Positions 146 through 4,511 of a stretch of DNA of 4,511 bases are shown here, piece by piece (the first letter of the stretch is position 1; every line of letters begins with the position of its first letter). Origin of the DNA: a virus (Duplodnaviria; Heunggongvirae; Uroviricota; Caudoviricetes). The position numbers and the translations under genes were made by a program. The DNA lies in the IMG/VR virus record IMGVR_UViG_2713896778_000015; one strand, written 5' to 3'. The notes below the pieces were generated by a model that did not search any database, had not been told where the DNA came from, and saw nothing but the letters and a program-made list of their open reading frames with translations.

Positions 146-240
146 AGAAATGAAAAAAGGCCACGCAGTTGCGCAGCCTGATAAACCCTGGTTAAAATCC
201 ACACGATAACAACACAACAATATCAGTATCTCATGCTATT

Positions 241-265
241 GCCCGAACCCATTCGGGCATTTTTT
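241..265 (+). terminator. Intrinsic terminator-like hairpin, plus-strand orientation
   Basis: GCCCGAA-CCCA-TTCGGGC stem-loop (241-258) followed by A-TTTTTT (259-265). On the minus strand the same hairpin is not followed by a U-run. Confidence 0.5.
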
Positions 266-327: not shown

Positions 328-528
328 GCATGTTTGCATGCACATTCTTTTTCTTGCATGGTGCCGGGTGCCTCCCGGTGAATTCAGTACCAGCACCTGA
401 ATCCGCGATTATCCCATATACCTACTCACTGATTGCCCCTCCGCACAGGGGGATTCACCATGCCAGTTTCTTTTAACAAACTCCCCGCAAACCAGACAAC
501 AGTCAACCGCCTGAATTGTGAGACATTT

Positions 529-568: not shown

Positions 569-644
569 TGGCGCGTTGTACTGGATTCGAACCAGCGACC
601 TGGCGATTATGCGTCGCTCGCTCTCACCACTGAGCTAAAGGGCC
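569..644 (-). tRNA. tRNA-like gene, 76 nt, CAU anticodon, Ile2/Met-type body; acceptor stem does not pair and position 33 is G, so probably a chimeric or pseudo tRNA
   Basis: Minus-strand sequence GGCCCTTTAGCTCAGTGGTGAGAGCGAGCGACGCATAATCGCCAGGTCGCTGGTTCGAATCCAGTACAACGCGCCA. D-arm GCTC/AGTGGTGA/GAGC and T-arm GCTGG/TTCGAAT/CCAGT are canonical. Anticodon loop is CGCATAA. The 5' strand GGCCCTT pairs with the 3' strand ACAACGC only at the two terminal positions. Confidence 0.55.
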
Positions 645-943: not shown

Positions 944-1362
944 TCACTGATAACAGAGAACTCGCGTGTCGTAACTTTTCTGGCATGCAACTGGCGCTGA
1001 CGGATCCTTTTGACTGAAATAGCAGTCTTCCAGTTTTTCGAACACATCCCACGCCTGATCGGTTTCGAGCATTTTTGCGTGGCGGGCTGCTCCGCGTTCT
1101 GTCCAGAGGATAAGGGAGCGGGCTTTGGGAGAGATGGGATTTTGTGAGTAGTTTAAAGCTACCCGCAATTCTTTAAGGTCATTACCAACAACTTTGAAAA
1201 NNNNNNNNNNNNNNNNNNNNNNNNNNNNNNNNNNNNNNNNNNNNNNNNNNGAATACGCACCGGCTCAGTGCCGTAAAGCTGCGCCAAAAGTTCGGTGGTA
1301 ATAACAGGAATCCGGTTATGGGTGATCGGGGAGAGAGTTTCAACAGAAATTTGAGTTGTCAT
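944..1362 (-). CDS. Phage regulatory protein, Rha/antirepressor-like (tentative), interrupted by the N-run at 1201-1250
   Basis: ATG at 1362..1360 with GAGGG 7 nt upstream. N-terminus MTTQISVETLSPITHNRIPVITTELLAQLYGTEPVRI. After the N-run the frame of ORF 944..1168 is open back to the gap (FKVVGNDLKELRVALNYSQNPISPKARSLILWTERGAARHAKMLETDQAWDVFEKLEDCYF...). The two track ORFs are one gene whose frame is broken by the arbitrary gap length. Family call is from motif recall only. Confidence 0.45.
1201..1250. other. Run of 50 N (assembly gap or masked sequence) inside a gene
   Basis: Literal N characters at 1201-1250; ORF frames on either side differ. Confidence 0.95.
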
Positions 1363-1375
1363 AATGACGCCCTCT

Positions 1376-1443
1376 GGTGGTTTCTAAACTATCACCACCG
1401 TCAGGTTCCAATCATCGGGTGGTGAGACGCACAGGGTTGGAAC
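1376..1443 (-). promoter_or_regulatory. Structured 5' leader of the Rha-like gene: interleaved complementary segments (pseudoknot-capable or alternative hairpins) next to the ribosome-binding site
   Basis: Plus-strand coordinates: GGTGGT 1376-1381, TCACCACC 1392-1399, GTTCCAA 1405-1411, GGTGGTGA 1418-1425, TTGGAAC 1437-1443. 1392-1399 can pair with either 1418-1425 or 1376-1381; 1405-1411 pairs with 1437-1443. The Shine-Dalgarno (complement of 1366-1370) lies directly 3' of the ACCACC segment on the mRNA. Confidence 0.3.
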
Positions 1444-1520
1444 TACCGGGAAACCGACCGGCGAGCTTTTCAGCTCCCCCATGCGCCCCACCATAATTCA
1501 GATGTGCGCGTGCATACGAC

Positions 1521-1545
1521 AATAAAAAACACGCTCGCGGCGTGT
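1521..1545 (-). terminator. Intrinsic terminator downstream of the Q-like gene (tR'-like)
   Basis: Minus strand: ACACGC-CGCGA-GCGTGT hairpin (1545..1529) followed by TTTTTATT. On the plus strand the hairpin is followed by GTCTGTCGCGG, so it is minus-oriented. Confidence 0.6.
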
Positions 1546-1606
1546 GTCTGTCGCGGTCTCTATCCGGGGTTCCAATCCCGACGCCAGATTTTGCTGGCGC
1601 GTGAGG

Positions 1607-1636
1607 AATATAGCCCCGGATAACAGATTGAGTCAA
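1607..1636 (-). promoter_or_regulatory. Candidate late promoter (PR'-like) overlapping the stop codon of the Q-like gene
   Basis: Minus strand: -35 TTGACT (1636..1631), 18-nt spacer, -10 TATATT (1612..1607). Predicted start near 1600, about 75 nt upstream of the terminator at 1521-1545. A 6-bp hairpin CGCCAG/CTGGCG (1582-1599) sits in the initial transcribed region. Confidence 0.45.
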
Positions 1637-2187
1637 CAGACGGTTTTTAGATCCCCGGAAGAGAATGCATCACGCATCGGTAGATAGAGCATATATTCAG
1701 CAAGATTTAGCCATACATCTACCCGACTGCAGCACGTCCGAAAACACCACTCAGGGTGTGAATCATTCAGCAATTCAGCCATTTTTCGCTTAGTCATCCC
1801 CCTCCCTTCATATCGTTGCCGGAGGATACAAATCAATCCTGGGTGTTCTGCCAGCACTTCACTAATCACCCGATCAATGCATAACGCCTCTGCATCAGTA
1901 CAATGCACCAGCCAGCTTTTTTGCTTGCCGTTGATCATATCCCGCAAAAAAGCCTCAAGTTCAGGTTTGTCCAAACCTGCTTTTTTCATCCTCCGGAGCG
2001 CCTCGTTAATTGCCGTTTTTGTCAGCTTTTTAGAGGTCAGCAACTGGTTGAACATATTTCCCGTCTTACCGCCGCCAATATACGACCAGCGCCCCCACAT
2101 GCGCAGTTTTCCCTGAATCCAGACACTTTCCAGCGTGGTGAGACGAAGGCGTTCCCCGCTTTTGCCTGTATTTGTTGGGTAAATCAT
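1633..2187 (-). CDS. Putative late-gene antiterminator Q-like protein (184 aa), assigned mainly by position
   Basis: ATG at 2187..2185 overlaps the upstream stop as ATGA. The track start at 2307 would overlap the YbcO-like gene in another frame. Sits directly after the DUF1367/DUF1364 nin-type genes and directly before a promoter plus short terminator. Cys pattern HCTDAEALC...CFRTCC could be a metal site. Sequence family not verified. Confidence 0.55.
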   Translation of the reverse strand: MIYPTNTGKSGERLRLTTLESVWIQGKLRMWGRWSYIGGGKTGNMFNQLLTSKKLTKTAINEALRRMKKAGLDKPELEAFLRDMINGKQKSWLVHCTDAEALCIDRVISEVLAEHPGLICILRQRYEGRGMTKRKMAELLNDSHPEWCFRTCCSRVDVWLNLAEYMLYLPMRDAFSSGDLKTVC

Positions 2188-3132: not shown

Positions 3133-3306
3133 TCATTCGCGAACTACCTTGAAACCGAGCCTTTCAAGGTATTCAATGAATGCCTCGATAGATAAAATTA
3201 CATGATCATCAGGGATTAACGTTGTGTAGACAACTTTCCCATTCTCAACGCGCACAGCATAGAGGCCATTTTCACTAAAAATTTCACGCAATTCTTCGAT
3301 TTTCAT
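3133..3306 (-). CDS. Small hypothetical protein, 57 aa (MKIEELREIFSENGLYAVRVENGKVVYTTLIPDDHVILSIEAFIEYLERLGFKVVRE)
   Basis: ATG at 3306..3304 with AAGGA 8 nt upstream. It is the C-terminal part of track ORF 3133..3420, whose listed start is a TTG. Has its own promoter-like signal and follows a terminator. No family recognised. Confidence 0.45.
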   Translation of the reverse strand: MKIEELREIFSENGLYAVRVENGKVVYTTLIPDDHVILSIEAFIEYLERLGFKVVRE

Positions 3307-3386
3307 CTTCAGAATCCTTCCAGATAAATAGCTCTTCCCCTTCGGGGTCCATCCCTCTTCTCCCTGCGCGCTACTTAAGAGCCTCG

Positions 3387-3414
3387 ATTCTAGCCGTGAA
3401 GACATACCGATCAA
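3387..3414 (-). promoter_or_regulatory. Candidate sigma70 promoter for the 57-aa ORF
   Basis: Minus strand: -35 TTGATC (3414..3409), 16-nt spacer, -10 TAGAAT (3392..3387). Gives a leader of roughly 75 nt. Confidence 0.4.
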
Positions 3415-3493
3415 CAGCAATAAGCCACCTGAATAACAGAATCAGCCAACCACATCAGTACAACCAGATGCATCATACTCACCGAAAATAAAC

Positions 3494-3520
3494 AACAAAA
3501 AACCCGCCGAAGCGGGTTTT
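3494..3520 (-). terminator. Strong intrinsic terminator (bidirectional geometry) ending the Doc-like operon
   Basis: AACCCGC-CGAA-GCGGGTT hairpin (3501-3518) flanked by an A-rich run on the left (3494-3502) and T4 on the right (3517-3520). On the minus strand it is followed by TTTTTTGTT and starts 17 nt after the Doc-like stop. Confidence 0.65.
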
Positions 3521-3534
3521 CATTGGAAGCACCT

Positions 3535-4020
3535 TTAGTTTTGCTGTTCCATTTTAAACTTGATAGTTTCATACAAAACAATAGTTGCGCCTGTTTTACA
3601 TAATTCCCGGCTGTCATACGCGCGAGACCAATAACACAACCAGTTCTCGAGATCTTCTCGAGTATAGGTTTTGCAGGCCAGTCCCTCTGCCATTTCCACG
3701 ATTTCATCGCCTGGTGCTGTTAATTCATAGCCATTCAACAACAAGAAGACGTAACCAGCCATCATAGCTGTTCGTTTGTTCGCATTAGCAAACGGATGAT
3801 TCTGAATCAGACTTTCAATCAATACCGATGCCAGTACAAACATGTCATTAGTCTGTTCATACCATCGAACCATGCTGGGACGGGCCTGAGAAGAACTTAA
3901 GTTATCTGGACTCAGAACACCAACGAGCTCATCTGGCGTCTGTAATTCAATTAGGGAACGATTGATTTCAACAAGATCATCAACCGTAAGGTAATGCACT
4001 CCTTCAACAATCTCAGCCAT
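3535..4020 (-). CDS. Doc (death-on-curing) / Fic-family toxin-like protein, 161 aa
   Basis: Contains HPFANANKRTAMMAG, matching the Doc-type motif H-x-F-x-(D/N)-(A/G)-N-K-R rather than the Fic HPFx(D/E)GNGR. ATG at 4020..4018; the track start at 4029 is a TTG. Begins 18 nt after the stop of a small upstream ORF. Confidence 0.85.
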   Translation of the reverse strand: MAEIVEGVHYLTVDDLVEINRSLIELQTPDELVGVLSPDNLSSSQARPSMVRWYEQTNDMFVLASVLIESLIQNHPFANANKRTAMMAGYVFLLLNGYELTAPGDEIVEMAEGLACKTYTREDLENWLCYWSRAYDSRELCKTGATIVLYETIKFKMEQQN

Positions 4021-4038
4021 AGAGCACAATACCCATCA

Positions 4039-4218
4039 TTACACTTTTGAAAGTTCTTCCATTGCCTTCTCGTAACGAGAAAAACCGAAATCGAAAGCAT
4101 TTTTCACCTGCTCACGATGAGTGCAATTTTCATCGATAGCCGGGCGCGGAGCTGCCACAACGCTTTTATCGCGAGGGGGAATAGTCAATCGCGGGTGTTT
4201 TTTTAGTGCGTAGCTCAT
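4039..4218 (-). CDS. Small ORF upstream of the Doc-like gene, 59 aa; candidate antitoxin/partner, not in the ORF track
   Basis: ATG at 4218..4216 with AAGGGGGG 6 nt upstream and an in-frame TAA 15 nt further upstream. Translation MSYALKKHPRLTIPPRDKSVVAAPRPAIDENCTHREQVKNAFDFGFSRYEKAMEELSKV. Does not resemble Phd as far as I can recall. Confidence 0.45.
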   Translation of the reverse strand: MSYALKKHPRLTIPPRDKSVVAAPRPAIDENCTHREQVKNAFDFGFSRYEKAMEELSKV

Positions 4219-4263
4219 TGGGTGCCCCCCTTACTTCTCCGTCCTGTTCTTTAACAAAAATCA

Positions 4264-4284
4264 AGTCAATACAAAATTAGTCAA
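4264..4284 (-). promoter_or_regulatory. Two direct TTGACT hexamers 15 bp apart upstream of the Doc-like operon (candidate operator or -35 elements)
   Basis: Plus-strand AGTCAA at 4264-4269 and 4279-4284, inside two similar 15-bp units (4256-4270 and 4271-4285, about 10 of 15 identical). No convincing -10 at canonical spacing. Confidence 0.25.
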
Positions 4285-4400
4285 GCTAATGTTGTTAGCA
4301 TATCCTAATACCAATCGTATTCACAACCACAGTACGTGAAAAAAAACCGCCGAAGTAGGTTAAGTGCGGGTGCGTTGAGGATGCCTGACACATCAGAGGT

Positions 4401-4422: not shown

Positions 4423-4429
4423 GGGTCTC

Positions 4430-4511
4430 TTACTCCTCAGGTTCGTAGGCTACGAAGACAGCGACCTCCGTCTGGCCGGTTCGGATTCGTACCTCGCAGA
4501 GGTCTTTCCTC
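4430..4511 (-). CDS. Possible C-terminal end of a gene entering from the right edge (...RKDLCEVRIRTGQTEVAVFVAYEPEE-stop)
   Basis: Only one minus-strand frame is open across 4433-4510, ending at TAA 4432..4430; the other two frames contain stops. Weak statistical support (26 codons). Confidence 0.25.
   Translation of the reverse strand, partial: RKDLCEVRIRTGQTEVAVFVAYEPEE

Follow-up and report, generated by a model that had tools for sequence, protein, structure and literature searches.

A putative Doc-family toxin and a 59-amino-acid antitoxin candidate form a two-gene cassette in lambdoid prophages of Escherichia coli

Doc is a classic toxin family, the neutralization of which has, to our knowledge, been studied almost exclusively with Phd-type antitoxins. 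Antitoxins of several superfamilies, as well as many partners without a classification, are known to accompany Doc toxins (PMC3141249), and non-Phd partners of Doc are known in general (PMC3141249, PMC10440598). Here, we analyze a stretch of 4,511 nucleotides from a virus of the Caudoviricetes (IMG/VR record IMGVR_UViG_2713896778_000015), henceforth termed the window, that encodes a Doc-family protein of 161 amino acids (aa) and, directly upstream of it, a 59-aa protein for which we use the name A59. We regard A59 as most likely a Doc antitoxin, and we put at roughly 0.7 the probability that the two genes constitute a mobile type II Doc toxin-antitoxin cassette, carried as a moron by lambdoid prophages of Shiga toxin-producing E. 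coli (STEC), in which A59 would serve as a stand-alone neutralizing element.

The Phd-Doc pair of phage P1 (3K33, 3DD7) shares with this locus a Fic/Doc toxin with the motif HxFx(D/N)(A/G)NKR, a small gene directly upstream in the operon, residence in a temperate phage, and a partner with a C-terminal helix of about 22–24 residues that bears a hydrophobic stripe. It differs in that A59 has neither the N-terminal DNA-binding and dimerization domain of Phd/YefM proteins nor any detectable similarity to Phd, and in that the toxin of the window is 35 residues longer and 21–24% identical. The charge of the partner is also reversed, A59 being basic (isoelectric point (pI) 9.3) and P1 Phd acidic (pI 5.1), a comparison confined to the partners. 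The closest solved structure by sequence is the Doc protein of E. faecalis (9VZC, E = 6.6e-13; PMC13034048), followed by P1 Doc (E = 3e-5), but in E. faecalis the Phd protein has an operator and an N-terminal β-sheet domain for DNA binding, both of which A59 lacks. The Phd proteins of E. faecalis and P1 have no detectable mutual similarity and both bind Doc via a C-terminal bent helix (PMC13034048), and a Doc toxin is neutralized by a Phd-C element alone in fusion with SUMO (PMC10440598); docking of an A59 helix on Doc is therefore plausible even without sequence similarity. A comparable case is PanA(Phd-C)-Doc from Corynebacterium doosanense (NetFlax, PMC10440598), in which a short helical element neutralizes Doc independently of the antitoxin globular domain, a mode coined “linear neutralisation”. 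There, however, the element is joined to a Panacea domain and needed a SUMO tag when isolated, whereas in A59 the element would stand alone by nature, accompanied by an extra conserved N-terminal motif.

Small antitoxins that lack a DNA-binding domain include PaaA2, the system of which has PaaR2 as its regulator. PaaA2-ParE2 (PaaR2) is located in the cryptic lambdoid prophage CP-933P of O157:H7 (PMC8630535), a setting like that of the cassette; the differences are its ParE toxin and a third gene for a transcriptional regulator, where the cassette consists of two genes between two terminators. The class I Fic antitoxins FicA, VbhA and YhfG are likewise about 55–62 aa long, encoded upstream of a Fic-fold toxin and devoid of a DNA-binding domain, but their [S/T]xxxE[G/N] motif occurs in only two of 37 A59 family members, A59 has no Pfam match, and the toxin is of the Doc type (NKR) rather than an AMPylator (GNGR). 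The two occurrences of the motif are at non-homologous positions, and we rejected an identity of A59 as a FicA-type antitoxin.

The Doc-family toxin and its small partner

Sequence comparison places the 161-aa protein in the Doc family as a new and unremarkable member. It matches TIGR01550 (DOC_P1) over residues 11–130 with 124.8 bits (cut-off 38.65, E = 2.1e-36), Pfam Fic with 46.4 bits (cut-off 24, E = 7e-12), and phrog_577, annotated as “Doc-like toxin”, with E = 6e-51. A match to Fic/Doc profiles had been named beforehand as a test by a reading of the window made from the letters alone (the sequence-only reading), which had also pointed out the Doc-type motif HPFANANKR and a length about 35 aa above that of P1 Doc, and all three statements were borne out. 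The motif occupies residues 75–83 and is of the Doc-kinase type, differing from the Fic AMPylator motif HxFx(D/E)GNGRxxR; H75, F77, N79, N81, K82, and R83 are invariant across 46 homologues. Of the residues in excess of P1 Doc (161 vs 126 aa), about nine are N-terminal. The C-terminal extension is conserved up to about residue 141 (WLCxWSRxYDSRxLC), with the last 20 or so residues variable, and is also found in distant Doc partners of A59 relatives. An AlphaFold model of the protein, which is acidic (pI 4.5), is of modest quality (predicted local distance difference test score (pLDDT) 62) and rests on a shallow alignment, and the top five PDB matches in a Foldseek search with this model are P1 Doc chains (3k33/3dd7; probability 1.00, TM-scores 0.43–0.59). 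The defense models of PADLOC gave weak Fic-domain matches only (PDC-S23, PDC-S05) for Doc and none for A59. Given the intact motif and the precedent of P1 Doc, the protein would most likely phosphorylate EF-Tu, and we treat it as a putative toxin.

The gene for A59 has a Shine-Dalgarno sequence, AAGGGGGG, 7 nt upstream of its ATG, in agreement with the sequence-only reading, which had noted a 59-aa open reading frame (ORF) with a good Shine-Dalgarno 18 nt upstream of doc. The two genes share a reading frame, with TAA TGA between them, and doc has no strong Shine-Dalgarno of its own; the two may thus be translationally coupled. In comparisons of A59 with seven equal-length orthologues, the differences are distributed over the three codon positions at about 18/7/41, the nonsynonymous rate (dN) is 0.22–0.30, and the synonymous rate (dS) is saturated. 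Because the substitutions fall mainly at third codon positions, we conclude from these alignments that A59 is a real protein-coding gene under purifying selection. Its length and start codon are kept across genera, which answers a second test named beforehand, that of conservation in homologous loci. The earlier description of the partner as unrecognized stands as regards function only, because the ORF is already called in RefSeq, as is doc: A59 appears there as “hypothetical protein” WP_000119356.1 without a function, and it also matches, over 59/59 positions, phrog_2208, a group with no assigned function.

An exhaustive hidden Markov model (HMM) search of 1.84 billion representatives, with clustering at 50% identity, yielded an A59 family of 39 clusters, nearly all of them proteins of 38–95 aa. 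Two longer matches (1,274 and 2,917 aa) cover short repeated stretches only, and three weak ones (P0046, P0048, and P0051; E = 2e-5 to 2e-4) have no Doc downstream and are probably false members. The alignment shows an N-terminal module, L-x-I-P-x-R-D-K...V-A-x-P-x-P, and a C-terminal module, H-x-x-Q-V-x-N-A-F-x-x-x-F-x-R-Y-x-K-A-x-x-x-L-S-K-V, with I13, P14, R16, A41, Y49, and L56 as the top-conserved positions. In the AlphaFold model of A59 (mean pLDDT 79.9), residues 1–33 are extended and include the near-invariant I13-P14-x-R16-D17 motif, and residues 34–57 form a single amphipathic helix with a conserved hydrophobic stripe, similar in length and position to the Phd-C element. The model contains no DNA-binding fold of the ribbon-helix-helix (RHH), AbrB, helix-turn-helix (HTH), or Phd/YefM N-terminal type.

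The initial impression that A59 does not look like Phd gained weight from every comparison made. None of the 37 family members matches any Pfam family, A59 has no match in NCBIfam, and a profile search of all PDB sequences returned only noise although Phd chains were included. An hhalign comparison of A59 with P1 Phd gave a probability of 1.4%, and an ungapped comparison, with shuffling, of the A59 C-terminus with Phd residues 52–73 was not significant (p = 0.04–0.12). On these grounds we rejected homology to Phd and, given also the missing N-terminal α/β dimerization and DNA-binding domain, membership in the Phd/YefM family (PF02604). The suggestion of the sequence-only reading that a Doc toxin is here paired with an antitoxin family other than Phd is supported to this extent, with neutralization by A59 as the presumed link. 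Judging from these searches, A59 is a candidate for an undescribed minimal antitoxin that belongs to no described family; our literature searches, by RefSeq accession and for Doc in STEC/EDL933 prophages, found no study of the A59-Doc pair.

Linkage, decay, and insertion of the cassette

Among 12 loci from other genera, phages, and metagenomes, 11 encode an intact Doc downstream of A59, with gaps of 3–10 nt; in the twelfth (L008), Doc is disrupted and A59 intact. Searching from the toxin side, we retrieved seven loci by Doc in species-representative genomes (Providencia, Morganella, Rosenbergiella, and Kluyvera), and all seven carry an A59 orthologue upstream of Doc, in six of them at a gap of 3–10 nt. 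In the temperate Pseudomonas phages Sirocco (Peduoviridae) and LPPA56, where A59 is 53–56% identical, the pair is located beside the integrase or an att end. Three metagenomic relatives of A59 (41–50% identity) are followed, 3–5 nt on, by a Fic protein of 145–165 aa with the motif HPF[A/F]NANKR. Within E. coli, the 684-bp pair is present in 125 of 5,426 complete genomes, with both genes and a chromosomal location every time, and its carriers include strains of the O104:H4 outbreak lineage.

Beyond the disrupted toxin gene of L008, the A59 relative P0037 precedes a truncated Fic gene of 101 aa, and two A59-like genes that are N-terminally shorter are orphans without an adjacent Doc (P0033 and P0041; L024 1501–1653 and L026 295–444). 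Decay of Doc with persistence of A59 is the pattern expected of an antitoxin, and among the loci examined A59 was not seen beside any other toxin family. The orphan in L024 has genes of the hok/gef and DUF1187 types nearby. In one metagenomic locus (L010), a second Fic-domain gene (1192–1920 (+); 242 aa, HCFHNGNKR) is located directly 3' of the A59-Doc pair.

Over positions 3400–4400, the window matches E. coli O121 and O157:H7 chromosomes at 100% identity, the matching segments belonging to lambdoid prophages. In the O157:H7 strain F6294, the prophage that holds this region carries, one after another on one strand, replication genes, DUF551, hokD, WP_000119356.1 (A59), a death-on-curing family toxin (WP_000818166.1), a Rem-like pseudogene remnant, DUF1367, DUF1364/YbcO, a Q-like DUF1133 gene, and lysis genes. 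The pair had been described as lying next to phage nin genes, which is correct in that nin-region equivalents (DUF1367, YbcO, and the Q-like gene) flank the cassette, and incorrect in that these are not the lambda nin genes proper.

The equivalent site in the Qin prophage of K-12 reads relB-relE-hokD-rem-ydfU-ydfT, with hokD, terminator, and rem in succession and no cassette, and represents an empty site. Homology between K-12, strain M19, and the window breaks exactly past the hokD terminator and returns some 100 nt beyond the doc terminator, ahead of the rem-like remnant. The doc terminator, predicted with a 10-bp G+C-rich stem and a T-run (free energy −16.2 kcal/mol, z = −2.8 vs shuffles), is itself a second copy of the hokD terminator, the two forming a 22-nt direct repeat (3497–3518 and 4340–4361) of 86% identity at a distance of 843 bp. 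Strain M19 has both copies intact, and the hokD copy of K-12 is also intact. The hokD copy of the window carries three changes, AACCTACTTCGGCGGTTTT versus AACCCGCTTCGGCGGGTTTT in K-12 and M19 (CCCGC to CCTAC and GCGGG to GCGGT), and its hairpin is no longer predicted, so that read-through from hokD into A59-doc is possible. Taken at the level of sequence, these comparisons directly support a discrete inserted unit of 843 bp, repeat to repeat, and we suggest that its point of entry was the hokD terminator, of which 22 nt became duplicated. The sequence-only reading had called the pair inserted and closed by a strong terminator; the terminator is confirmed, and the case for insertion now goes beyond the original statement, as two hokD terminator copies bracket the cassette and K-12 Qin shows the empty site. 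Coordinates are collected in Table 1.

Table 1. Features of the cassette and its surroundings in the window; A59, doc, the terminator, and hokD are all on the minus strand, and window coordinates equal those of our locus L001 minus 4601
Feature	Coordinates	Strand	Basis or remark
A59 gene, putative minimal antitoxin	4218..4039	-	ATG start, 59 codons, Shine-Dalgarno
doc gene, 161-aa putative kinase toxin	4020..3535	-	ATG start; alternative TTG at 4029
Intercistronic spacer, 18 nt, TGATGGGTATTGTGCTCT	4021..4038	-	ORF coordinates
Intrinsic terminator, GAAAACCCGCTTCGGCGGGTTTTT	3498..3521	-	Hairpin prediction; intact downstream copy of the hokD-type terminator
Cassette 5' region, 121 nt	4219..4339	-	Promoter and repeat scan
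Upstream 22-nt repeat copy, equal to the hokD 3' terminator, decayed	4340..4361	-	Alignment to K-12 and strain M19
hokD 3' part, type I toxin gene running off the window; upstream neighbor	4427..4511	-	RefSeq annotation mapped from L001; K-12 hokD alignment

Several further observations concern this segment. An Rfam match to rsmX at 3497–3586 (34.9 bits, gathering score 56) was judged to reflect the terminator hairpin and not a small RNA (sRNA). The possible read-through from hokD recalls the relBE-hokD (relBEF) operon of Qin. Downstream of the cassette, a 95-aa ORF at 3133–3420 (-) is a remnant of Rem: its residues 39–64 share 73% identity with the K-12 Rem N-terminus, and the remainder has diverged and contains deletions. 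A match of this ORF to phrog_340 (E = 5.5e-19) again leads to no assigned function, and RefSeq marks part of it as a pseudogene. In O104:H4, a gene for a RelE/ParE-family toxin and an HTH gene, together a HigBA-like pair, adjoin the Doc cassette (L021 2321–2950), and the resulting order of hokD, A59-Doc, RelE/HTH, and ORF6N-NinB-NinE places three toxin-antitoxin modules in a row. Judged by its gene content (hokD, relBE, RelE/HTH), this part of the prophage is a hot spot at which toxin-antitoxin modules collect.

In the E. coli window, the 121-nt 5' region of the cassette contains no sigma-70 site with at least 9/12 matches and no inverted repeat of at least 6 bp; two TTGACT hexamers are present 15 nt apart (4284–4279 and 4269–4264). 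The regions upstream of A59 are unrelated between genera. In loci from Providencia and Morganella (L002, L003, L004, L006, and L008), a palindrome about 70–95 nt upstream of the A59 start overlaps a TTGACT-17-CATTAT promoter. It takes the forms TAATGTA..TACATTA, TAATGAAA..TTTCATTA, or TAATGAAAG..CTTTCATTA, with paired changes in the arms that keep the symmetry, and qualifies as a candidate operator with no counterpart in the E. coli window. The E. coli cassette may be expressed from its own promoter, by read-through from hokD, or under autoregulation.

Proposed mechanism and alternative explanations

In the mechanism that we propose, free Doc, a Fic-fold kinase, would arrest translation via phosphorylation of EF-Tu. 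A59, made first from the shared transcript, would neutralize Doc by direct binding, with its amphipathic C-terminal helix docking in the concave face of Doc in the manner of the Phd C-terminal bent helix and with the I-P-x-R-D segment providing a second contact; this segment could also plug the active site, act as a degron, or form an arm that binds DNA. With no DNA-binding domain in A59, autorepression of the classical kind by the antitoxin is probably missing or takes another form. The cassette may serve to stabilize the prophage or its region, to exclude other phages, or both. With small, adjacent, co-oriented genes, the partner first, tight spacing, and conservation of the pair across taxa and mobile elements, the locus has the features of a type II module; a typical though not obligatory feature is absent, as A59 has no DNA-binding domain and the window no operator palindrome of at least 6 bp.

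Several observations weigh against this interpretation. The target of Doc could differ, because identity to P1 Doc is as low as 21–24%, and the Doc model is of low confidence. The hhalign and ungapped comparisons give no significant resemblance between A59 and Phd. Neither a promoter nor an operator was found in the window, which bears on expression in the lysogen, and the palindrome of Providencia and Morganella would fit autoregulation by some DNA binder.

The last point leads to a canonical autoregulated pair, in which A59 would dimerize via its helix, its basic N-terminal arms (I-P-x-R-D-K) would bind an operator, and the A59-Doc complex would repress its own promoter as Phd-Doc does. The basic N-terminal half of A59 (charge +2.6), the conservation of its motif to the same degree as the helix, and the palindrome TAATG(T/A)A..T(A/T)CATTA over a TTGACT promoter, with its symmetry kept, all speak for such a scheme. 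We consider it unlikely, however, as the A59 model shows no RHH, AbrB, HTH, or Phd/YefM fold, the family has no Pfam match, the window lacks an upstream inverted repeat of at least 6 bp, and the upstream regions are unrelated between genera despite the conserved N-terminal motif. A rather unlikely elaboration takes the opposite course and makes A59 a bipartite inhibitor that binds no DNA, with the helix in the Phd-binding groove, the I-P-x-R-D segment as an active-site plug or pseudosubstrate, no transcriptional autoregulation, and expression by hokD read-through. The segment would then imitate the EF-Tu acceptor loop G-G-R-T382, its Asp (or Asn/Glu) standing where the loop has the phospho-acceptor Thr. 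Read-through in the O157/O121 variant, following decay of the hokD terminator, would tie a type II toxin to a type I toxin in the manner of relBE-hokD of Qin.

The pair could also lie outside toxin-antitoxin biology, with Doc as an accessory kinase of the phage, acting on a protein of the host or the phage and not toxic to the lysogen, and with A59 as its cofactor, specificity subunit, or regulator. Such a role would accommodate the low identity to P1 Doc, the conserved C-terminal extension that P1 Doc does not have, the presence of the cassette in temperate phages of several families, and the diversity of targets among Fic-fold enzymes (PMC10440598). It is nevertheless improbable in view of a catalytic motif that is exactly of the Doc type, a TIGR01550 score three times the cut-off, and a gene order, gene sizes, spacing, terminator, neighboring toxin-antitoxin genes (hokD; RelE/HTH in O104:H4), and decay that are typical of type II modules. 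A chance origin of the 59-aa ORF within the doc leader, with Doc solitary or controlled by RNA, would explain why no functional database family matches A59 and why metagenome gene sets often omit it (A59, 17 clusters; Doc, 233). This explanation is, on the sequence evidence, effectively refuted by the strong third-position bias, the length and start codon kept across genera, the identity retained in Pseudomonas phages, the Shine-Dalgarno, and the coherence of the family as small proteins.

If A59 is the Doc antitoxin that we propose, it would represent a natural minimal inhibitor of Doc kinases and raise the questions of what suffices to neutralize Doc and how such a module is controlled without an autorepressing antitoxin. 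The family is small yet spread over Enterobacterales and Pseudomonas phages. With the cassette in prophages of the pathogens O157:H7, O121, and O104:H4, its function would bear on the stability of STEC prophages and possibly on phage exclusion. The label of a putative antitoxin associated with Doc could be assigned to WP_000119356 and phrog_2208.

Other features of the window

Apart from the cassette, Rfam models identify several RNA elements in the window. On the minus strand, C4 antisense RNA (1415–1498, 71 bits), the Hfq-binding RNA isrK (1524–1600, 77.5 bits), and c4 a1/b1 target sites (1561–1613) form a cluster just downstream of the Q-like gene, followed by a truncated ORF6N/antirepressor-like ORF at 1159–1362. 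We take this cluster (1415–1613) to resemble the P1-type c4/ant immunity system and the IsrK/anti-Q module of Gifsy-1. The anti-GcvB sRNA AgvB of enterohemorrhagic E. coli prophages (96.5 bits) and STnc100 (111.8 bits) are represented at 204–265 (+) and 328–492 (-). Two masked runs of exactly 50 N, at 278–327 (between AgvB and STnc100) and 1201–1250, break several mechanical ORFs. ARAGORN called no tRNA in the window; a tRNA-like element at 571–641 (-) matches the tRNA model of Rfam over 579–638 with 37.3 bits, and RefSeq annotates its equivalent at L001 5172–5242 as tRNA-Met.

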